Positions 2,475 to 55,055 of a DNA stretch of 64,000 nucleotides are shown piece after piece. The notes beneath the pieces are model-generated. The model made no database searches, was not told the DNA's origin, and worked only from the letters and a program-made list of their open reading frames with translations. The first letter of the stretch is position 1. Each line of letters starts with the position of its first letter. The position numbers and the translations under genes are program-made. Origin of the DNA: an uncultured Gemmatimonadales bacterium (GTDB lineage: Bacteria; Gemmatimonadota; Gemmatimonadetes; Gemmatimonadales; GWC2-71-9); NCBI GenBank assembly GCA_963771275.1, contig CAVYSW010000009.1, positions 192,001-256,000 on the forward strand, given 5' to 3'.

Positions 2475-2571
2475 AATGTTCAATGTTCAATGTTCAATGT
2501 TCAATGTCCAATGTCCAAGGAGTCGAGCAGGCGGTCCATCACTGCCCGACAGCCTTGGTCATGGGACATTC
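2475..2571. repeat. Heptamer-arm palindrome, CAATGTY family, copy 1
   Basis: aatgtt (caatgtt)3 (caatgtc)2 caag, a 34-nt hairpin insert, then cttg gtcatgg gacattc. Confidence 0.85.
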
Positions 2572-2593
2572 ATCCCCGGAGACTGGACCTGGA

Positions 2594-20562: not shown

Positions 20563-20654
20563 AATGTCCGACAGAATGTCCAATGTCCAATGTCCAATAT
20601 CCAATGCTCAAGTCCTTGGACATTGGATATTGAGCATTGGACATCGGACATTCT
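20561..20654. repeat. Heptamer-arm palindrome, CAATGTY family, copy 2
   Basis: agaatgtccga...caatgtc caatgtc caatatc caatgct CAAG-tc-CTTG gacattg gatattg agcattg gacatcg gacattct; fills the gap between convergent stops. Confidence 0.92.
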
Positions 20655-22114
20655 CACAGGTAGGGTGAGGCGAGCCGGGCGATCCCGTTCCGGAGACGCC
20701 GCGGCAGCGACATGCCGTCCAGCTCCGCCGCCGTGACGAGGCGACCGCTCGCGCGCTTCTCGTCCATGAAGTGCCCCAGCTGCTCGCCCAGCGCCGGGTC
20801 GTAGCACTCCACGTTGAACTCGAAGTTGAGCCGCAGGCTGCGCGGGTCCCAGTTGGCGGACCCGATCAGGATCCACGCGCCGTCCACGAGCATCAGCTTG
20901 GTGTGGTCGAACGGCGGAGGCGTGTAGTACACGGTGCAGGCGTTCTTCACGAACTGCCAGAGCAGCGCCTGCGACGCCCAGTCGGCGAGCGGGTGGTTGT
21001 TCTGCGCGGGCAGCAGGATCTCGACCCGCACGCCGCGGAGCGCCGCGACGTTGAGCATGGCGGTGAGGGTCGCGTCCGGCAGGAAGTAGGGGGTCATGAT
21101 GCGGATCGACTCCGCCGCCACGCCGAGCGCGCCCTGGATCACCCAGCGCAGCTTCTCGAAGTCCTCGTCGGGACCGTCGGCGATGCCGCGCGCGGCGACC
21201 GTTCCCGCCCGGGCCGGCTCGGGCAACCAGTCAGGGCCGGCGAGCAGTTCCCCCGTGGTGAATACCCAGTCCTCGGCAAACGCCTCCATCAGGTGCTGCA
21301 CGACCGGGCCATCCACCTGAAAGTGGAGATCCTGCACGGGGTGCCTGGCGTGCGCTGTCACGAGATGATCCTGCCGCAGGTTCATGCCGCCCGTGAACCC
21401 CACCGCCCCGTCGACGACCAGGAGCTTGCGGTGATTGCGCAGGTTCCAGAACGGCGCGCGCCACGGCGCGATCGTCGGCATGAAGCGCGCGACCCGGATG
21501 CCGCGTTGCTGGAGCAGGGGCACGACGGGGGGCCATGAGAAGCGGGAACCCAGGCCGTCGATCAGCACGCGGGTCTGCACGCCGCGGCGCGTTGCCCGCT
21601 CCAGCGCGTCCACGAACGCCCTGCCCGCGGGATCATTGTCGAAGATGAAGGTCGAGAGCGCGATCGAGCGCCGCGCATCGTCGATGGCGGCGATCATGGC
21701 CGGGTAGGCGGCATCGCCGTTCACCAGCGGGGTCACCGCGTTGCCCGCCGTGAGCGGCCGGCGACACACGCGATCCACCAGGCGGGCAAGCGTGCCCAGG
21801 TGCCGGTGCTCGTCACCGAGCACGTCCCCGAGGGCCGCGGCAGCGCCACCGAGCGCGGCGTAGGCGCCCGACAGCCGCCGGGTCTCGCCCCGCAGCATCG
21901 CCGCCCGCCGCCGTATTCGATTCACGCCGAGCAGCGCGTACAGCACCGCGCCAACGACCGGGACGAGCCAGATGAGCCCGACCCACGAGACCGCGGCTCG
22001 AGTGTCCCGCTTGTAGAGAATCGCGTGCCCCGACGCGACGATCGCGAGGAGCAGGGTGAGGGCGGCGGCGACCCAGTAGCCCAGCTCGGAGAGGAATGCG
22101 ACGAGCCGATCCAT
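20654..22114 (-). CDS. cls: Cardiolipin synthase
   Basis: N-terminal PLDc_N TM pair; two HKD motifs (NHRKLLVVDG, HTKLMLVDG), GSANWD. Confidence 0.93.
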   Translation of the reverse strand: MDRLVAFLSELGYWVAAALTLLLAIVASGHAILYKRDTRAAVSWVGLIWLVPVVGAVLYALLGVNRIRRRAAMLRGETRRLSGAYAALGGAAAALGDVLGDEHRHLGTLARLVDRVCRRPLTAGNAVTPLVNGDAAYPAMIAAIDDARRSIALSTFIFDNDPAGRAFVDALERATRRGVQTRVLIDGLGSRFSWPPVVPLLQQRGIRVARFMPTIAPWRAPFWNLRNHRKLLVVDGAVGFTGGMNLRQDHLVTAHARHPVQDLHFQVDGPVVQHLMEAFAEDWVFTTGELLAGPDWLPEPARAGTVAARGIADGPDEDFEKLRWVIQGALGVAAESIRIMTPYFLPDATLTAMLNVAALRGVRVEILLPAQNNHPLADWASQALLWQFVKNACTVYYTPPPFDHTKLMLVDGAWILIGSANWDPRSLRLNFEFNVECYDPALGEQLGHFMDEKRASGRLVTAAELDGMSLPRRLRNGIARLASPYL

Positions 22115-37291: not shown

Positions 37292-37360
37292 CGAATGTCC
37301 GATGATCAATGCCCAATATCCAAGTACTTGGACATTGGCCATTGATCATTGGACCTTTCG
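37292..37360. repeat. Heptamer-arm palindrome, CAATGTY family, copy 3
   Basis: cgaatgtc cgatgat caatgcc caatatc CAAG-ta-CTTG gacattg gccattg atcattg gacctttcg. Confidence 0.9.
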
Positions 37361-38944: not shown

Positions 38945-39048
38945 GAATGCCCTAATGACTAATGTCCTGTGATCGGCGTCCAATGGGCAGGCCTGCGATC
39001 TCCTGCCCTTGCTAATTGGTAATTGGACATTGGGGATTGGACATTGGA
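38945..39048. repeat. Heptamer-arm palindrome, CAATGTY family, copy 4 (degenerate left arm)
   Basis: gaatgcc ctaatga ctaatgt...caat gggcagg-loop-cctgccc ttg ctaattg gtaattg gacattg gggattg gacattg. Confidence 0.8.
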
Positions 39049-39149
39049 TCCCCGCAACGCCAATCGCCCCAGCCACTTGCCGAAGCCGCGCCGAATTTCC
39101 GTTACCCACGTCACGGCGCCGCACCCCCCGCCGGTGACTTCGTGTACCC

Positions 39150-40172
39150 GTGCCGATGCCTCTACCCGCTCCGCCCGGACCGGCGCGACGACGTGCGCGG
39201 TCTCAGCGGTGCAGCCACTGGTGCGTCATCACGTGGCTGGTCGCGCTCCCGGCCTGCGCGCCGGCGGTTCCCACCGACCTCGTGTGGGTCGAGATCCCAG
39301 AGGGCGCGCCGGTCGAAGCCGTGGCGGAGTCGCTCGCCGTGCACGGCATCGTTCCCTCGGCTGAAGGGTTCGTGCGCCTCGCGCGATACGACGGCCAGTA
39401 CCGCGATATCAAGCCCGGGCTCTATCCCCTGCCGCCACGCATGGGCCGGTACAACGCGCTATCCACCCTGCTCAAGGGTGTCGGACGGGTGCGGGTCATC
39501 GAGGTGCGGGAGCGGATGACGCTGATCGAGCTGGCTGACGCGCTGGTACAAACCCTCGGGGTGGGGCGCGCAGAGGTGCTGGCGGCCGCGAGCGATTCCG
39601 CGCTCCGCGCCCAGGTGGGCGCGGCGGGCCCGACCATCGAGGGGTATCTGTTCCCCACGACCTACCATGTGCCCTTCGACGCGTCGGTGCCGGTAATCCT
39701 CGGCCAGATGGCGGACACCTTCGAGGCGCGCTGGCGGCCCGCCTGGAACGCGCGCCTCGACACGCTCGGGCTCTCGCGTGACCAGGTGGTGATCCTCGCC
39801 TCGATCATCGCGGGGGAGATGCCGCTCGGCGACGAGCGCTTCCAGGTGGCGTCGATGTACCACAACCGGCTCGCCCGCCGGATGCGGCTCCAGGCTGACC
39901 CCACGGTGGTCTACACGCTGGGCGAGCGTCGTCGCCTGACCTTTGCGGATTACCGCGTCGCGTCGGACTACAACACGTACACGATCAACGGCCTTCCGCC
40001 CGGCCCCATCGGGCAGCCGTCCACCGAGAGTCTCGAGGCCGCGCTCTACCCGGCGACGACCGATTTCCTGTACATGGTGGCCGGGCCCGACGGGTCCCAC
40101 GCGTTCTCGCGCACGTACGTTGAGCACCTGCGGACGATTCGGGAGATCCGGGGCGGGGGGAGAGGGCGGTGA
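39150..40172 (+). CDS. mltG: Endolytic transglycosylase MltG
   Basis: EGYLFPTTY, ILASII..E, NRL..MRLQADPTV, YNTY..GLPPGPI; start uncertain. Confidence 0.9.
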   Translation: MPMPLPAPPGPARRRARSQRCSHWCVITWLVALPACAPAVPTDLVWVEIPEGAPVEAVAESLAVHGIVPSAEGFVRLARYDGQYRDIKPGLYPLPPRMGRYNALSTLLKGVGRVRVIEVRERMTLIELADALVQTLGVGRAEVLAAASDSALRAQVGAAGPTIEGYLFPTTYHVPFDASVPVILGQMADTFEARWRPAWNARLDTLGLSRDQVVILASIIAGEMPLGDERFQVASMYHNRLARRMRLQADPTVVYTLGERRRLTFADYRVASDYNTYTINGLPPGPIGQPSTESLEAALYPATTDFLYMVAGPDGSHAFSRTYVEHLRTIREIRGGGRGR

Positions 40173-40173
40173 T

Positions 40174-40216
40174 CGAATGCTCAATGTTCAATGCTCAATG
40201 TTCAATGTTCAATACT
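40174..40216. repeat. Left heptamer arm of copy 5, upstream of the four-helix-bundle gene
   Basis: cgaatgct caatgtt caatgct caatgtt caatgtt caatact. Confidence 0.92.
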
Positions 40217-40327
40217 GGTTTCCAGGTATCCGGCATCGAGTCCCAGGATTGAGTCGTGGGATTCGAATTGCGCTGCCTCGCAGCACTTTGGTGATGCACG
40301 AGGGCACGGTCGCCCCAGAGTTGGGGC

Positions 40328-40699
40328 ATGGCTCCGCGTCGGTACGATCTGGAGGATCGCCTGCTCGCGTTTGCGATCTCCGCGTCTCGCCTCACGACTG
40401 CCTTTCCGCCCAGCATGGTGGGCCGGCACGCCGGGCTACAGCTGATTCGATCTGCGACATCTCCGGCCGCCAACTATGCGGAAGCCGTGGCGGCGGAGTC
40501 CCGCCGCGATTTCGTACACAAGCTCCGCATCTGTCTCAAGGAGCTGCGCGAGGTGCGCATCTGGCTCCGGTTCGTTGTGGGAGTCGAACTCGCTCCGAGC
40601 GCGGCTGTCGTGGGAGCGGGTCGCGAATGCGATGAGCTGATCGCGATCCTCGCCGCCTCCATCAGGACGGCGAAAGGCAGAGCGTCAAGCGATCAATGA
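40328..40699 (+). CDS. Four helix bundle protein (23S rRNA-IVP / Avd-like superfamily)
   Basis: DLEDRLLAF...QLIRSATSPAANYAEA..AESRRDFVHKLRICLKELRE..WL...ECDELIAIL..SIRTAK. Confidence 0.9.
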   Translation: MAPRRYDLEDRLLAFAISASRLTTAFPPSMVGRHAGLQLIRSATSPAANYAEAVAAESRRDFVHKLRICLKELREVRIWLRFVVGVELAPSAAVVGAGRECDELIAILAASIRTAKGRASSDQ

Positions 40700-40792
40700 T
40701 CAGTGTTCAAATGATCAGTGTTCAATAGATCAGTGTTCAAGTCCCCTCTAGACCTTGGATATTGGATATTGAACATTGATCATTGAACATTG
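40692..40792. repeat. Downstream part of copy 5: 15-nt tandem repeat, CAAG-12nt-CTTG centre, right heptamer arm
   Basis: (atgatcagtgttcaa)x2 tagatcagtgttcaa g tcccctctagac cttg gatattg gatattg aacattg atcattg aacattg. Confidence 0.92.
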
Positions 40793-40797
40793 CTCCC

Positions 40798-42012
40798 ATG
40801 ATCCCTATTCCTCCCCGCATCCTGCAGGTGGATGCCGACGCCTTTTACGTCCAGGTCGCCCGCCTGGCGGACCCGGAGGGCGCGGGGCGCGCCGACCTGC
40901 TGCTCGTGGGCGGCTCGCCCAAGGGCCGCGGGGTCGTTACCTCGGCGTCCTACGGCGCGCGCCGGTTCGGCGTGCGATCGGGCATGGCCATGGCACAGGC
41001 GGTGCGGCTCTGCCCCGATGCCCTGGTGGTCGGGGTGCCACGGCGCGCGACGTCGGAGCGCAGCCGGGCGATCGTCGCGGTGCTGGAGCGATTCACTCCC
41101 GTGGTGGAGCCCGCGTCGATCGACGAGATGTACCTCGACCTCTCCGGCACCGAGGGGCTCTATCGCCACGAGCCGCTCGAGGCGACGGCGCGCCGCATCC
41201 GGGAGGCCGTGCTCGCCGAGTCCGCGATCGCGGTCTCGATCGGCGGCGGCACCAATCGGCTCATCGCCAAGCTCGCGGCGGGACGTGCCAAGCCGCACCA
41301 CACGCCCGAGGCGGCGGGCGTGCTGATCGTTCCGCCGGGGGAGGAAGCGGCGTTCCTCCGGACTTTCGATCTGGCGGATATCCCGGGGGTCGGCCCCAGA
41401 TTCCAGGATCGGCTGCTCGCGCTGGGCCTCAAGACGATCCCCGACGCGCTGCGCCACGACCGCGCGGTGCTGCGCCGCTGGCTGAGCCCGCGCGCGGGCG
41501 ACTGGCTCTACGACCGGATCCGCGGGGTGGATGCCTCGACCGTCGAACGCCGCGCCGCCGCCCGGTCGATCAGCCGCGACGAGACCTTCGCGACCGACCT
41601 GGACGCGGACGAGGCGCTGCGGGCCGAGCTGCTCCATCTCGCGGATCGCGCCGCCGCCGATCTCCGCGGCGACGGCTATCGGGTGCGGACCGTGAGTGTC
41701 CGGATCCGGGATCGCGATTTCAAGGACCGGCGCGCAAGCCGGACCCTCGCCGTACCGGTGAGCAGCGATCACGCGATCGCGCAGGTGGCGCTCGAGCTGC
41801 TCGCCCGGCTGCGGCGCGCGCGCCACATTCCCGCCCGGCTGCTGAGCGTGGCGCTGACCCAGCTCTCCCGGGAGCCGTCGGCCGTGCAGGGTGGCTTGTT
41901 CCCGGAAGACGACCTCGCATCGTTGGAGACGGAGCGGGACCGGCGCCTGTCCCGCGCGCTCGACGAGCTGCGAGGCCGGTTCGGCCGGGACGCGGTGGAT
42001 CGGGGGCGGTAG
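40798..42012 (+). CDS. dinB: DNA polymerase IV (Y family)
   Basis: DADAFY, SASYGARRFGVRSGM, SIDEMYLD, AKLAA..KP, SISRDETF. Confidence 0.93.
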   Translation: MIPIPPRILQVDADAFYVQVARLADPEGAGRADLLLVGGSPKGRGVVTSASYGARRFGVRSGMAMAQAVRLCPDALVVGVPRRATSERSRAIVAVLERFTPVVEPASIDEMYLDLSGTEGLYRHEPLEATARRIREAVLAESAIAVSIGGGTNRLIAKLAAGRAKPHHTPEAAGVLIVPPGEEAAFLRTFDLADIPGVGPRFQDRLLALGLKTIPDALRHDRAVLRRWLSPRAGDWLYDRIRGVDASTVERRAAARSISRDETFATDLDADEALRAELLHLADRAAADLRGDGYRVRTVSVRIRDRDFKDRRASRTLAVPVSSDHAIAQVALELLARLRRARHIPARLLSVALTQLSREPSAVQGGLFPEDDLASLETERDRRLSRALDELRGRFGRDAVDRGR

Positions 42013-45440: not shown

Positions 45441-45504
45441 ACGTATGGCGTGCAGCGTGCAGCGTACGGCAGTTACGCTGCACGCTGCACGCGATACGCT
45501 GGAC
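45441..45504. repeat. Heptamer-arm palindrome, GCGTGCA family
   Basis: acgtatg gcgtgca gcgtgca gcgtacg gcagt tacgctg cacgctg cacgcga tacgctg; between convergent genes. Confidence 0.85.
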
Positions 45505-46647: not shown

Positions 46648-46743
46648 GAATGTATGCAATGTCCAATGCCCAAGGCGCAATGTCCAATGTCCTAGGCCCG
46701 TCACTTGGATATTGGACATTGGACGTTGAACATTGGACATTGA
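46648..46743. repeat. Heptamer-arm palindrome, CAATGTY family, copy 6
   Basis: caatgtc caatgcc caaggcg caatgtc caatgtc ctag-gcccgtca-cttg gatattg gacattg gacgttg aacattg gacattg. Confidence 0.92.
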
Positions 46744-46746
46744 ATC

Positions 46747-47631: not shown

Positions 47632-47633
47632 AG

Positions 47634-47724
47634 CGAATGTCCAATGTTCAATGTTCAATACCCAATGTCCAGGGACTTGGACATTGAGCATTGGACATTG
47701 AGCATTGGACATTGGATATTGGAC
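47634..47724. repeat. Heptamer-arm palindrome, CAATGTY family, copy 7
   Basis: cgaatgtc caatgtt caatgtt caatacc caatgtc cagg-ga-cttg gacattg agcattg gacattg agcattg gacattg gatattg. Confidence 0.93.
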
Positions 47725-47751
47725 CGTCCGCCGCTCTCAGGAGCCCACGCC

Positions 47752-48369: not shown

Positions 48370-48442
48370 CGTGTCGCGTGTAGCGTATAGCGTGCCTACT
48401 GCCACCTCTCGCCGCCTTTGCCGCCCCTGCCGCTACTGCCGC
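48363..48442. repeat. Composite repeat: GCGTGYA 7-mer arm abutting a 9-mer (YCTGCCGC-type) arm
   Basis: cgtgta gcgtgtc gcgtgta gcgtata gcgtgcc, then tactgccac ctctcgccgc ctttgccgc ccctgccgc tactgccgc; between convergent stops. Confidence 0.7.
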
Positions 48443-50010
48443 TGCTCCCCATGCAGCAGCTGCCGCACTTCCTCCTGCGCCCCGACGGCCAGGTCGATCC
48501 GCTCGCCGATCTCCTTGGCCCGCGCGATGTGCTGGGTGATGTCGCCGACCGAGCCGACGCCTGCGTGCAGCCGCAACAACCCGACCCGGATGTTCTCCAG
48601 TGCGGCGACGGCCTCCGTGAGACGGGCGCCAGTATCGCCCCCGGCCCGCAGGACCTCGGCACGTTCCTCCAACAGCTGAATCACCCCCCGCACGCCGCGC
48701 AGCTGGGCGCGGGTCATGTCCGGCAGCGCGTCGAACGCTTCGGTGGCCGCACGGCCGAGCGCCAGCTCGGTCGCCTCGCGGCCCGGCAGCGCGGCCCGCT
48801 TCGGCCGCTTGATGCCGACGCCCGCCGCCTTGAAGAAGAGCCGCCCGAGCCGTCCCGCCCACAGCCGGTGCCACAGCCCGGTGACCCACCGCATGAGCCG
48901 ACGCTCGCCGATCGCCCCTGATTCCTCCTCCTGGAGCCGCGCCTCGGCGAGCAGCGCCGCGCGGATGTCGTCGAATACGTAGCCCTCGCGGAGCAGCCGC
49001 CGCGCGGCGCCGATCAACTGGACCACGATGGCGAGGAACACGATGTTCACCTCGCCACCTTGGGTTCCCATACGCACCACCGCGGTGCCGGCCAGAATCA
49101 CCGCCGTCGAGATCTCGGCATTGCGCATGAAACGGCGGAGCAGCGGCGGGGCGCGCAGCTCCTGCCCCCGCAGCTCACCCGCCAGGGTCGCCAGCTCGTC
49201 GCCCGACTGCACCCGACCGCGCGGCTCGCGCGCCAGGCACTTCTCGATCAGCTGACCCAGTTGCTTCGGCACTTCGGGCCGCAGGGAGCAGACCTCCGGC
49301 ACCGGGCGCGTCAGCTGCTCGTTGATGATCGCGGGGAGGGAACGGCCCTCGTACGGCGCGCGCCCGGTGAGCGCGAAGAACGCGGTCGCGCTCAGCGAGT
49401 AGAGGTCGCTCCGCCCGTCCACCGGCTCGCCGCAGGCCTGCTCGGGACTCATGTAGCGCGCGGTGCCGATGATCTCGCCCGACTGCGCCGCGGAGGGCCC
49501 GGTCGTGACCTGCGCGATTCCGAAATCCGTCACCAGCACGCGATCGGTGTCGCGCTCGATCATGATGTTGTCGGGCTTCACGTCGCGGTGGACGATGCCG
49601 CGCTGATGGGCGTAGGCGAGCGCCCACGCGGCTTCCTGCACGACCTTCGTCACGAACTTGGGCGACAGCGGCCCGAGCCGGTCCACGCGCTGGCGCAGCG
49701 TCTCGCCGTCCACATAGCCCATCACGAAGAACACCAGATCGCCGTGCGCCTCGACGAGGTGAATCGGAACGATATTGGGATGGGACAACCCCGCGGCGGT
49801 CCGCGCCTCGCGCAGAAACCGGTCCCGCACCCCGGCGTCCTGCGCCAGCTCGCGGGGCAGCAGCTTGATGGCAACCAGCCGATCCAGCGCCACGTCGTGC
49901 GCGAGCAGCACGATCCCCATGCCGCCACGTCCCAGCTCCCGCTCGATGGAGTAGCGACCGGCGAGGACTTCCTGGAGAGACAGGAACTCGGGGGAGATGG
50001 CGTCCGGCAT
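48433..50010 (-). CDS. Ser/Thr protein kinase with TM segment and helical C-terminus
   Basis: ELGRGGMG, VAIK, HRDVKPDN, DFG, GTARYMSPEQ. Confidence 0.93.
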   Translation of the reverse strand: MPDAISPEFLSLQEVLAGRYSIERELGRGGMGIVLLAHDVALDRLVAIKLLPRELAQDAGVRDRFLREARTAAGLSHPNIVPIHLVEAHGDLVFFVMGYVDGETLRQRVDRLGPLSPKFVTKVVQEAAWALAYAHQRGIVHRDVKPDNIMIERDTDRVLVTDFGIAQVTTGPSAAQSGEIIGTARYMSPEQACGEPVDGRSDLYSLSATAFFALTGRAPYEGRSLPAIINEQLTRPVPEVCSLRPEVPKQLGQLIEKCLAREPRGRVQSGDELATLAGELRGQELRAPPLLRRFMRNAEISTAVILAGTAVVRMGTQGGEVNIVFLAIVVQLIGAARRLLREGYVFDDIRAALLAEARLQEEESGAIGERRLMRWVTGLWHRLWAGRLGRLFFKAAGVGIKRPKRAALPGREATELALGRAATEAFDALPDMTRAQLRGVRGVIQLLEERAEVLRAGGDTGARLTEAVAALENIRVGLLRLHAGVGSVGDITQHIARAKEIGERIDLAVGAQEEVRQLLHGEQRQ

Positions 50011-50012
50011 GG

Positions 50013-50101
50013 TTCAATGTTCAATGTTCAATGTTCAATATCCAAGTGCTTGGACATTGAGCATTGAACATTGAGCATTGAACATTGAGCATTGAACATT
50101 C
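50013..50101. repeat. Heptamer-arm palindrome, CAATGTY family, copy 8
   Basis: (caatgtt)3 caatatc CAAG-tg-CTTG gacattg (agcattg aacattg)2 agcattg aacattc. Confidence 0.95.
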
Positions 50102-51130
50102 TGCTCCGCTACGCCGCACTCTCCATGCTCTCGCGCGGTACTTCCCGTACCGCGCGGCGCTGACGAGGCGGCCGCGACGCGCGAACGCCTCCTGCCCCTG
50201 CCCGACCTTGGCCGGGTCGCCGCCCCACGCCTTGAGGGCCTCGTCCTGGAGCGCGCGCCCATAGGAGTAGGACAGCTCCCAGGGGTGTTTGCCCATGGCG
50301 TTCATCGCGTTGAGGTTGGCGGTGGCCTCCTGCGGCGTCTGCCCACCCGACAGGAACACGATGCCGGGCACCGCCGCCGGCACGGTGCGCAGGAAGCAGC
50401 GCACGGTCGTCTCGGCGATCTGTCCGGGGGTCCACTTGCCGGGGCCCTTCTTGCCGGGGATCACCATGTTCGGCTTGAGCAGGATGCCCTCAAGCGCCAC
50501 ACGATGGGCGTGGAGGTGGAAGAACACGCTCTCGAGCGTGGTCGCCGTCACCTCCCCGCAGCGCTCGCCCGAGTGATCGCCGTCCATCAGCACCTCGGGC
50601 TCGACGATCGGGACGATGCCGACGTCCTGACACAGCGCGGCGTACCGCGCCAGCGCGTGGGCGTTCGCGTCGATGCAGAAGCGCGTCGGGATCCCGCTCC
50701 CGATCGTGATCACCGCCCGCCACTTCGCGAAGCGCGCGCCGAGCTTGCGGTACTCGACCAGCCGCTCGCGCAGCCCGTCCAGGCCCTCGGTGATCTTCTC
50801 GCCGGCGTACCCGGCGAGGTCCTTGGCGCCGGTGTCCACCTTGATCCCCGGCACGACGCCCGCCTTGGTCAGCAGATCGCAGAACCGGACCCCGGCCTGC
50901 GTCTTGTGGCGGATCGTCTCGTCGAACATGATCACGCCGCTGATGTAGTCGCCGACGCTCGCGGTCGTGAACAGCATTTCGCGATAGGCGCGCCGACGCT
51001 CTTCGCTCGACGCGACGTTGATGCTCTTGAAGCGCTTCTCGATCGTCCCGAAGCTCTCGTCCGCGGCGAGGATCCCCTTCCCCTTCGCAACGAGCGCTTC
51101 GGCCACCGCATTGAGCTCCTGCAGATTCAT
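50021..51130 (-). CDS. Fructose-bisphosphate aldolase class I; natural end probably 50109, with an apparent frameshift near 50135
   Basis: GKGILAADES, GIKVD, FAKWRAV, PIVEPEV, LLKPNMV, FLSGGQ, SYGRALQ. Confidence 0.95.
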   Translation of the reverse strand: MNLQELNAVAEALVAKGKGILAADESFGTIEKRFKSINVASSEERRRAYREMLFTTASVGDYISGVIMFDETIRHKTQAGVRFCDLLTKAGVVPGIKVDTGAKDLAGYAGEKITEGLDGLRERLVEYRKLGARFAKWRAVITIGSGIPTRFCIDANAHALARYAALCQDVGIVPIVEPEVLMDGDHSGERCGEVTATTLESVFFHLHAHRVALEGILLKPNMVIPGKKGPGKWTPGQIAETTVRCFLRTVPAAVPGIVFLSGGQTPQEATANLNAMNAMGKHPWELSYSYGRALQDEALKAWGGDPAKVGQGQEAFARRGRLVSAARYGKYRARAWRVRRSGAECSMLNVQCSMFNAQCPSTWILNIEH

Positions 51131-54897: not shown

Positions 54898-55016
54898 GCG
54901 GCAGAAGAGGCGGAGGCGGCAGGGGATTGAACGGCCCCGGGACGACTCGGCTGCCGCATGTGCTGCGTCTGCCACATCCGCCGCCCCTGCCGCATCTGCC
55001 GTCCTCTACCGTATCT
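54898..55016. repeat. Nonamer-arm palindrome (CTGCCGCAT family)
   Basis: gcggcagaa gaggcggag gcggcaggg ... ctgccgcat gtgctgcgt ctgccacat ccgccgccc ctgccgcat ctgccgtcct ctaccgtat. Confidence 0.75.
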
Positions 55017-55055
55017 GAGTAGATTGCCGACCCACACGGGAGGACGAAGTACGAG

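Follow-up and report, generated by a model that had tools for sequence, protein, structure and literature searches.

The DNA analysed here, which we call the window, is a stretch of 64,000 nt (C9:192001-256000) of G000, a 3.86-Mb metagenome-assembled genome of the Gemmatimonadales (70% G+C, 11 contigs, 96.7% complete), and its subject is a gene for a 123-residue protein that lies between two inverted arms of tandem heptamers. Positions given as bare numbers are those of the window, and all features of the locus are on the forward strand. The upstream neighbour, mltG (YceG family; 39150..40172; PF02618, E 1.4e-71), ends with a stop codon 3 nt before the 5' arm (40176..40213), which consists of 5.4 units of CAATGYT, the first being GAATGCT (Tandem Repeats Finder: period 7, 90% matches, AATGTTC/AATGCTC). 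Then come a leader of 114 nt (40214..40327), the gene itself (40328..40699), an internal forward-type arm that overlaps its stop codon (40695..40740; 3.1 copies of the 15-mer AATGATCAGTGTTCA, Tandem Repeats Finder), a loop of 14 nt (40741..40754) and the 3' arm (40755..40792). The latter is the reverse complement of the 5' arm and is resolved by the same program into TTGGATA x2.4 (40755-40771) and ATTGAAC x3.6 (40768-40792). The likely ATG of dinB (40798..42012), which encodes a DinB-type polymerase, is at 40798, 5 nt past the 3' arm; relatives begin MP..RILQ. The original prediction, a reading of the letters of this stretch, had described the gene as enclosed by heptamer arms between mltG and dinB, and this is what the repeat analysis finds.

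The enclosure was quantified by an inverted-repeat score, i.e., the best local alignment between the 300 nt upstream of a gene and the reverse complement of the 300 nt downstream of it. We used a threshold of 30, the 99th percentile of 400 random placements in G000; the window copy scores 51 versus a maximum of 38 among these placements. The pattern CAATGYTCAATGYT has 39 matches in the window with at most two mismatches, versus 0.19 expected and no more than 2 in any of 100 shuffles. A duplex of about 38 nt is possible between the outer arms (-45.7 kcal/mol for RNA, -28.8 for DNA), and the internal and 3' arms can make a local hairpin of their own (-50.1 kcal/mol for RNA, where G.U pairs contribute, and -23.1 for DNA). 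When a 641-nt stretch is folded to minimum energy, RNA pairs the 3' arm with the internal arm (42 nt), and DNA pairs it with the upstream arm (32 nt). The enclosing stem is therefore real, yet it has a competitor: the stem foreseen around the gene stands, and the internal arm had been overlooked. Rfam returned only models of miRNA-precursor hairpins, all under their gathering scores, and no rRNA match between 39000 and 51000; the cassette lies between mltG and dinB and not in helix 25 or 45 of a 23S rRNA.

No RNA run matched 39600-41400, but metagenomic DNA contains the same arrangement. One contig of 1,656 nt from run X2 covers the entire cassette (39485-41140) with 18 differences, and the contigs of run X1 break within the 5' arm. 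More generally, contigs of X1 and of several congeners terminate within repeat arms. A strain variant in X1 carries TAAA inserted behind 40748, in the loop of the downstream hairpin. Metagenomic joints that skip 548/556 nt were considered as an empty site and rejected, because their shorter side has just 30-31 nt; we read them as other hairpin loci. The comparison of the mltG-dinB junction among relatives, proposed with the original prediction as a search for empty sites, yielded no clean one: congener G001 has an armed orthologous cassette after mltG, and in the other congeners dinB has different upstream neighbours and a hairpin of another class. A comparison of cassettes also revealed a leader motif, approximately GTGCRnTGnAnnTGGTWAC, that begins 56 to 60 nt before the ATG in 31 of 49 cassettes (candidate site at 40272-40295 in the window, with TGGT at -39). 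This motif may be a promoter or an RNA site; a promoter of the sigma-54 type was rejected by eye because the spacing is unsuited.

The protein matches PF05635 with 48.4 bits (cut-off 33.8) and TIGR02436 with 74 bits (cut-off 24), and represents a divergent subfamily, hereafter A (SPAANYAEA...RRDFVHKLR). Its AlphaFold (AF2) model has four helices (pLDDT 93.9). The nearest solved structures according to Foldseek are BT_0352 (2rld) and Xcc0516 (2gsc), with TM 0.76-0.84, followed by Avd and the ribonucleoprotein of diversity-generating retroelements (DGRs), with TMq of about 0.75-0.76 and probability 1.0. These searches bear out three predictions, namely that the protein belongs to this family, that it folds into four helices and that it is structurally similar to Avd. 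A profile search against the PDB retrieved 2gsc at E 7.4e-38 and gave no sequence similarity to Avd at E 0.01. The sequence relatives 2GSC and 2RLD have five chains each as deposited, and Xcc0516 is described as a homopentamer (Lin et al. 2006, as relayed in PMC4990558). By homology, the window protein probably forms a homopentameric barrel like Xcc0516, BT_0352 and Avd. The family motif RxxxSxxxNxxE, given as GxxRxxxSxxxNxxE in PMC3936711, is present (R41, S45, N49, E52) except for the leading G; among 17 sequences, Q38, R41, E52 and E75 are invariant and N49 is conserved in at least 90%. The protein is basic (pI 9.9, net charge +5), as are 47 members of the family (median pI 9.8, net +6).

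Four paralogues and four repeat classes in one genome

The genome encodes five matches to TIGR02436, four of which are above the cut-off, and all four of the latter lie between inverted tandem-heptamer arms, each with a unit of its own. Class A is the window copy (40328-40699; CAATGYT). Class B (C4:9214-9528) has arms of GTGAAAA and TTTTCAC, class C (C3:141972-142286) has CGTGTAG-type arms plus an internal forward arm, and class D (C3:424155-424469) has TAGCCGA repeated eight times upstream and some 20 units of its complement downstream. The weak open reading frame (ORF) L005 (C7:9293-9562) is the fifth match; it scores 22.5 bits and has no arms. It is followed by a short ORF, which may resemble an antitoxin of the Phd/YefM type.

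The units of the four cassettes make up much of the tandem-repeat content of the genome. Among arrays of at least three copies, period 7 is the commonest (312), followed by periods 9 (207), 6 (171) and 8 (76). With at most one mismatch, the four cassette units account for 201 of the 363 non-overlapping period-7 arrays (62, 54, 50 and 35), the remaining 162 being mainly G+C-only low complexity, together with 15 arrays of AAACGGG, a unit variant found in the B-type cassette of a congener. Arrays form 60 adjacent inverted pairs, and the seed unit is in the 5' arm in 54 of them; the other six arise from adjacent hairpins on either side of ordinary genes. Wherever correctly polarised arms are more than 120 nt apart, they enclose a TIGR02436 gene. 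Since a hairpin reads the same on both strands, this fixed polarity is a property of the element itself. The hairpins are all intergenic. Both flanking ORFs could be assigned for 20 of the 52 hairpins, because ORF calls cover only 79% of the genome, and these comprise 11 in convergent, 8 in tandem and 1 in divergent context. The median number of copies per arm is 4.4 in G000 and 5.4 across phyla, and some five units per arm would fit one unit per protomer of a pentamer, which is only a numerical match.

Seven gene-less copies of the class-A palindrome had been announced in the window. Seven class-A sites without a gene are indeed there, five of which are full palindromes. These are located at 20565..20660 (between convergent genes), 37293..37357, 46656..46745 (ending 3 nt before the ATG of an aldo/keto-reductase-like gene), 47633..47727 (directly past that same gene) and 50008..50103. 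The sixth, at 2475..2575, has a 5' arm of 6.3 units and a decayed 3' arm, and the seventh, at 39015..39050 upstream of mltG, is a solo 3'-type arm. The window also has three class-C sites, including a gene-less hairpin at 45446..45498 whose CGTGYAG unit is that of the paralogue at C3:141972-142286. Two arrays of 9-mers were observed as well: CTGCCGCCC x4.8 at 48399-48442, after a solo class-C arm, and CTGCCGCAT x7.3 at 54951-55017.

The hairpins have outermost units that are consistently distinct from the inner ones: those of class A tend to begin with (C)GAATG and to end with CATTC, and those of the 8-mer class found in congeners start with AGGATAGACGG and end with CCGTCTATCCT. In congener G004, a gene-less hairpin and the genome's own cassette share a complex, non-periodic arm. 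Defined ends and a shared non-periodic arm point to the copying of whole elements and not to independent slippage.

Arms, units and repeat classes among relatives

The association between gene and arms extends well beyond G000. TIGR02436 has matches in 36 of the 41 genomes in our sample of the order. Among the first 34 loci, 30 score above 30 and 27 are above all controls; with 20 further loci from six congeners, the threshold is passed by 43 of the 48 testable loci, with periods of 7 (24), 8 (14), 9 (4) and 4 (1). One locus (L032) comes from an unpublished genome, G020, and dropping it makes no substantive change. A scan of named genomes with the window protein gave 80 loci in at least ten phyla, and 63 of the 76 testable ones score above 30, 55 of these with period 7. 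Displaced placements in the same loci never do so (0/132, maximum 27). Subfamily-A loci occur in Gemmatimonadota, Chloroflexota, Acidobacteriota, Planctomycetota, Verrucomicrobiota, Bacteroidota, Desulfobacterota and others.

Plasmids also carry members of the family, and 24 of the 27 plasmid matches are cyanobacterial. Tandem heptamers are beside the gene in five of six cyanobacterial plasmid copies and are arranged as inverted arms in four, with scores of 55, 29, 28 and 28, so that only one passes the threshold; two copies that adjoin an insertion sequence have the downstream array only. On plasmid pANA02 of Anabaena sp. 90, a family member with long (GGTGACA)-type heptamer arms (L284) is located between cas6 and cas4, which fits the report of the family in cas loci (PMC3936711). 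Two congeners show other neighbourhoods: in G006 the orthologous A-subfamily cassette (L073; G006:C194:192-1703; 1-344) stands directly past rRNA genes, the 3' end of the 23S and the 5S (101 bits each in Rfam), and in G005 the A-subfamily gene adjoins a tRNA gene (L066, 1165-1238).

The original prediction had also proposed that paralogues be checked for flanking inverted arms and for units that track the protein clade. The first holds for all four solid paralogues of G000, and so does the second: unit core and period follow protein clade across phyla. Arm units of the A subfamily in congeners are CAATGYT in G000, GAATGAC in G001 (also right after mltG), CAATGAC in G006 and GAATGCA/GAGTGCA in G005. 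Across phyla, 35 distinct subfamily-A units, read on the strand of the 5' arm, have nnS-A-W-Y-K in common, with the A in 35/35. Their alignment reaches 5.05 bits, versus 3.64 +/- 0.16 (maximum 4.02) in 60 letter-permuted sets, and for 18 units from the order that belong to other subfamilies no common motif exceeds the null (4.70 versus 4.24 +/- 0.26 bits). Scored by the subfamily-A model, members left out one at a time have a median of 4.78 bits versus 0.0 for these 18 units (Mann-Whitney p 2e-5). The strict form [CG]A[AT]T[GT], expected in 2-9% of random heptamers, is present in 31 of 55 subfamily-A arms and in 6/11 of the members labelled Gemmatimonadota, versus 1/21 for other subfamilies (p 0.003).

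We replicated this in a second subfamily, with a metagenome scan that used L031 as query; 61 of 80 loci were taken, the 19 truncated or cut ones being dropped by eye, and of the 61, 58 could be tested. Relatives that share 60% identity or more with L031 have arms in 23 of 25 cases, with period 8 (21) or 9 (2) and never 7, and 17 of these 23 contain AGACG two or more times. Arms are also found in 25 of 33 more distant relatives, all with period 7 and none with AGACG (0/25). AGACG is found in 0/63 subfamily-A arms, and the use of period 7 versus 8 differs between subfamily A and the L031 subfamily (Fisher p 1.6e-14).

Repeat classes have been gained and lost within the genus. We counted 21-nt pattern matches with at most two mismatches on both strands; the control with reversed patterns is invalid for GTGAAAA and TAGCCGA, whose reversal is a rotation of the same repeat. 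In the order G000 to G006, the counts are 91, 23, 23, 0, 0, 0 and 49 for CAATGTY; 83, 13, 32, 4, 2, 3 and 3 for GTGAAAA; 114, 0, 1, 61, 52, 3 and 21 for CGTGYAG; 118, 0, 0, 80, 64, 30 and 2 for TAGCCGA; and 0, 13, 24, 85, 22, 114 and 53 for the 8-mer GACGGCNA. TGCAGAR, with no value for G000 and G002, has 0 matches in G001, 23 in G003, 7 in G004, 75 in G005 and 31 in G006. Every cassette with a nameable arm class has at least 22 matches of that class in its own genome; in G005, for example, the A-subfamily gene is beside (GAATGCA)n and this class has 75 matches. Conversely, classes with 0-4 matches have no cassette of the same class in that genome, save for a B-variant cassette (L059) in G003, whose units, GTGAAAC/GGGAAAC, are missed by the GTGAAAA pattern.

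A natural loss is found in another genus, whose sole member without a TIGR02436 match (G028) has 2 matches of GGGTGTA, at one site, versus 17, 30 and 62 in three congeners. Five genomes without the family have 7 arrays of period 7 or 8, one of which has an inverted partner, in 326 kb sampled. Five genomes with the family have 38 such arrays, 18 of which are paired, in 266 kb (14 paired in G021, 3 in G013, 1 in G016 and 0 in G031 and G024). Positions can outlast classes: in G000 and in all the congeners examined, hairpins occupy the same slots, one before dinB and one to either side of the reductase-like gene, with different unit classes. These slots correspond to 40755-40792, 46656-46745 and 47633-47727 of the window and to gaps in loci L037-L041 and L074-L078; the 3' arms abut the starts of dinB and of the reductase-like gene.

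Proposed recognition of the repeats and rival explanations

The pattern of these sequences leads us to favour, with moderate confidence, the reading that the protein, which is basic, Avd-like and probably pentameric, has its own class of repeats as the target it recognises, a relationship akin to that of RAYT and REPIN but lacking a transposase. The window cassette would be one of four cognate protein-repeat pairs in G000. Its protein would recognise the units of its own class, with roughly one protomer per unit, and would act on its own arms, in the control or protection of its own transcript or locus, as well as on the dispersed gene-less hairpins of the same class. These hairpins would be cargo-less copies of the same element, persisting only where the cognate protein is present. 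That the protein is a pentamer, that it binds specific sequences and that the hairpins depend on it is what we infer from the comparisons above. The interpretation originally given to the locus, a candidate master copy and intervening-sequence-like cassette whose protein would bind, process or spread the hairpins, is partly supported as a whole.

Several observations weigh against recognition of the repeats by the protein. The window protein has no recognisable catalytic (nuclease or transposase) domain, and binding, cleavage or transposition has been shown for no member of the PF05635 family. Four loci of the order set have no arms (L019, L034, and L013 and L033 at contig ends). Some classes are abundant where no cassette is seen, in congeners that are 71-89% complete: C in G003, G004 and G006, A and B in G002, and D in G005. 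Nor do paralogues guarantee hairpins, as G016, G031 and G024, with 6, 8 and 5 paralogues, have 1, 0 and 0 paired arrays in 62, 80 and 26 kb, respectively. The cassettes look stably inherited and not mobile, with fixed sites after mltG, beside a DsbA-like gene and beside an oxidoreductase gene. Because gene and arms are inherited together, shared ancestry could account for part of the match between unit and clade. The p-values given above are overstated because kin were counted, which are not independent, though the trend that they describe is clear. The S-A-W-Y-K core was derived from the same data, with leave-one-out as the only correction, and the base composition of the compared sets differs. 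Finally, arm mismatches of the two wobble-compatible types (56 and 60, versus 112 others) show neither an excess nor a strand bias, so that selection at the level of RNA is not visible; such selection was considered as a candidate and gave no signal.

An alternative that we regard as unlikely is a selfish cassette that acts in cis only, in the manner of an intervening sequence (IVS) of 23S rRNA. Its arms would serve its own transcript, RNase III would cut the stem, free and stabilise the small mRNA and repair the flanking transcripts, the role of the protein would be unrelated to the repeats, and the gene-less hairpins would be leftovers without cargo, kept and multiplied by host processes such as slippage and recombination. 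The layout does match that of the ORF-bearing IVS described in PMC4990558, RNA pairing of the outer arms is worth -45.7 kcal/mol, the gene is passed on together with its arms at fixed sites, and the orthologous cassette of G006 stands directly past 23S and 5S rRNA genes. However, action in cis leaves unexplained why core and period are specific to clades across phyla while other positions of the unit turn over within a genus, and why genomes that lack the cognate gene also lack the hairpin class. Two features of the cassettes also fit it poorly: the GTGAAAA cassette abuts a divergent gene, so that a read-through transcript cannot supply its 5' arm, and as RNA the 3' arm of the window prefers the internal arm over the upstream one.

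We consider it very improbable that the hairpins are punctuation of the host, i.e., terminators, insulators or stabilisers of mRNA 3' ends like REP, and the proteins host regulators or chaperones, the whole forming a regulon and not a selfish system. The intergenic location of all hairpins, with 11/20 in convergent, 8/20 in tandem and 1/20 in divergent context, is what such a role would favour, and the same gaps keep hairpins in several congeners despite the change of class, as if position mattered. Yet these context counts come from 20/52 hairpins only, there is no T-run behind the hairpins, some of them abut start codons and one is between divergent genes. Moreover, whole classes are absent from close relatives, in some genomes without visible replacement. 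The idea that intergenic repeat hairpins are common and that a short gene between two of them merely looks enclosed draws on their local density (five consecutive gaps at 45-50 kb of the window) and on the extra internal arm of 2/4 cassettes, which makes a cassette readable as a solo arm plus a full hairpin, but it is scarcely credible, as an ordinary gene situated between hairpins shows the reverse arrangement (3'-type arm, gene, 5'-type arm) and the controls never reach the observed scores (4/4, 43/48 and 63/76 enclosed).

Recognition of the repeats by the protein might apply to the family at large. We advance only tentatively the generalisation that PF05635/TIGR02436 proteins are sequence-specific readers of tandem repeats of 7-9 nt, in which a pentameric barrel would read about five units, core and period would be set by the clade, and the proteins would be needed for the persistence or multiplication of the hairpins, a widespread and transposase-free counterpart of REPIN-RAYT. 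If it is true, the IVS of 23S rRNA, the excess of heptamers in bacteria (including the STRR type of cyanobacteria) and the origin of Avd concern one family of elements. One testable explanation would then cover three puzzles: the function of S23p, the 23S rRNA IVS protein, which is unexplained despite crystal structures since 2006-2007; the excess of 7-nt tandem repeats between genes; and the origin of Avd. Should each protomer read one unit, at a period adjustable to 7 or 8, the proteins would also represent a novel type of programmable nucleic-acid binder. G000 is a clean test bed for these ideas, with four paralogues, four repeat dialects, tens of gene-less copies of each and congeners that gained or lost single dialects; cognate and non-cognate binding are directly comparable with four proteins and four oligonucleotides.

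The literature searched, supplements aside, contains no paper that links PF05635/TIGR02436 to tandem-repeat arms as a class. New here are the correspondence between four paralogues and four classes in a genome that is almost complete, the counts of classes by genome together with a natural loss, the conservation of core and period within clades, and the replacement of classes in conserved slots.

Relation to known systems

Intergenic tandem heptamers, often in inverted pairs and specific to lineages, have been described in several groups: the STRR of heterocystous cyanobacteria, TAACTGA in Beggiatoaceae, cyanobacteria and Bacteroidetes, and GGGAATC in Xanthomonas (features taken from parts of PMC4679880 and PMC4692102). 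The likeness to the arms studied here lies in these general features. Supplements aside, the two papers do not mention the four-helix, 23S or S23 protein family.

The organisation recalls that of REPINs and RAYTs, as presented in parts of PMC3116915, PMC3337134, PMC5581495 and bioRxiv 10.1101/2021.07.10.451892. In both, the gene is flanked by inverted copies of a dispersed repeat, there are several gene-repeat pairs with a class each, inheritance is vertical and at fixed sites, and repeats are missing where the gene is missing. The systems differ in that the flanked gene encodes here a four-helix bundle of 120 residues (PF05635) and not a Y1 (HUH) transposase, and in that the repeats are tandem 7-9-mers and not a single palindrome of 20-40 nt with a GTAG tag. 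The original prediction had seen no recognisable transposase. This is right for the surroundings of the heptamer arrays, but G000 has three matches to PF01797 (Y1_Tnp) elsewhere, each of which is either separated by 22 kb or more from the nearest array of the four classes or located on a contig that has no such array. One of them, the RAYT-like gene L286 (C7:18267-18551), has GTAG-type palindromes of its own that are unrelated to the heptamer hairpins; the others are at C3:659887-660228 and C6:89656-89898. A RAYT as mobiliser of the heptamer hairpins was rejected because these genes are far from the arrays or unrelated to them.

The likeness to Avd of DGRs resides in the four-helix-bundle fold and in the basic charge. 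Avd is a pentameric barrel that, in the DGR particle, holds an RNA stem-loop encoded beside its own gene (parts of bioRxiv 10.1101/2023.10.23.563531 and of PMC10053308). By contrast, the cassettes have no template or variable repeat, and G000 has no reverse transcriptase, as had been predicted (0 matches to PF00078 in a genome that is 96.7% complete), which led us to reject a DGR-like origin of the repeats dependent on reverse transcription.

A close parallel is the 23S rRNA IVS with an ORF (S23p) of Coxiella burnetii, Leptospira and Xanthomonas, which encodes a protein of the same family, PF05635, in the loop of a stem of terminal inverted repeats. Tandem heptamers occupy the arm next to the ORF, and their copy number varies between strains; in the Coxiella IVS the stem measures 28 bp, the heptamers precede the ORF and RNase III cleaves at the first of them (PMC4990558). 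The likeness of the gene-in-stem layout to these ORF-bearing IVS, proposed at the outset, is upheld by this comparison and by the pairing of the arms. Unlike these, the window cassette lies between protein genes, each paralogue has a unit of its own, and gene-less hairpins of that unit are found throughout the genome. The window locus is a free-living relative of the ORF-bearing intervening sequences of rRNA, and one half of a partnership between a protein and its repeats, in the manner of RAYT and REPINs but with an unrelated protein.

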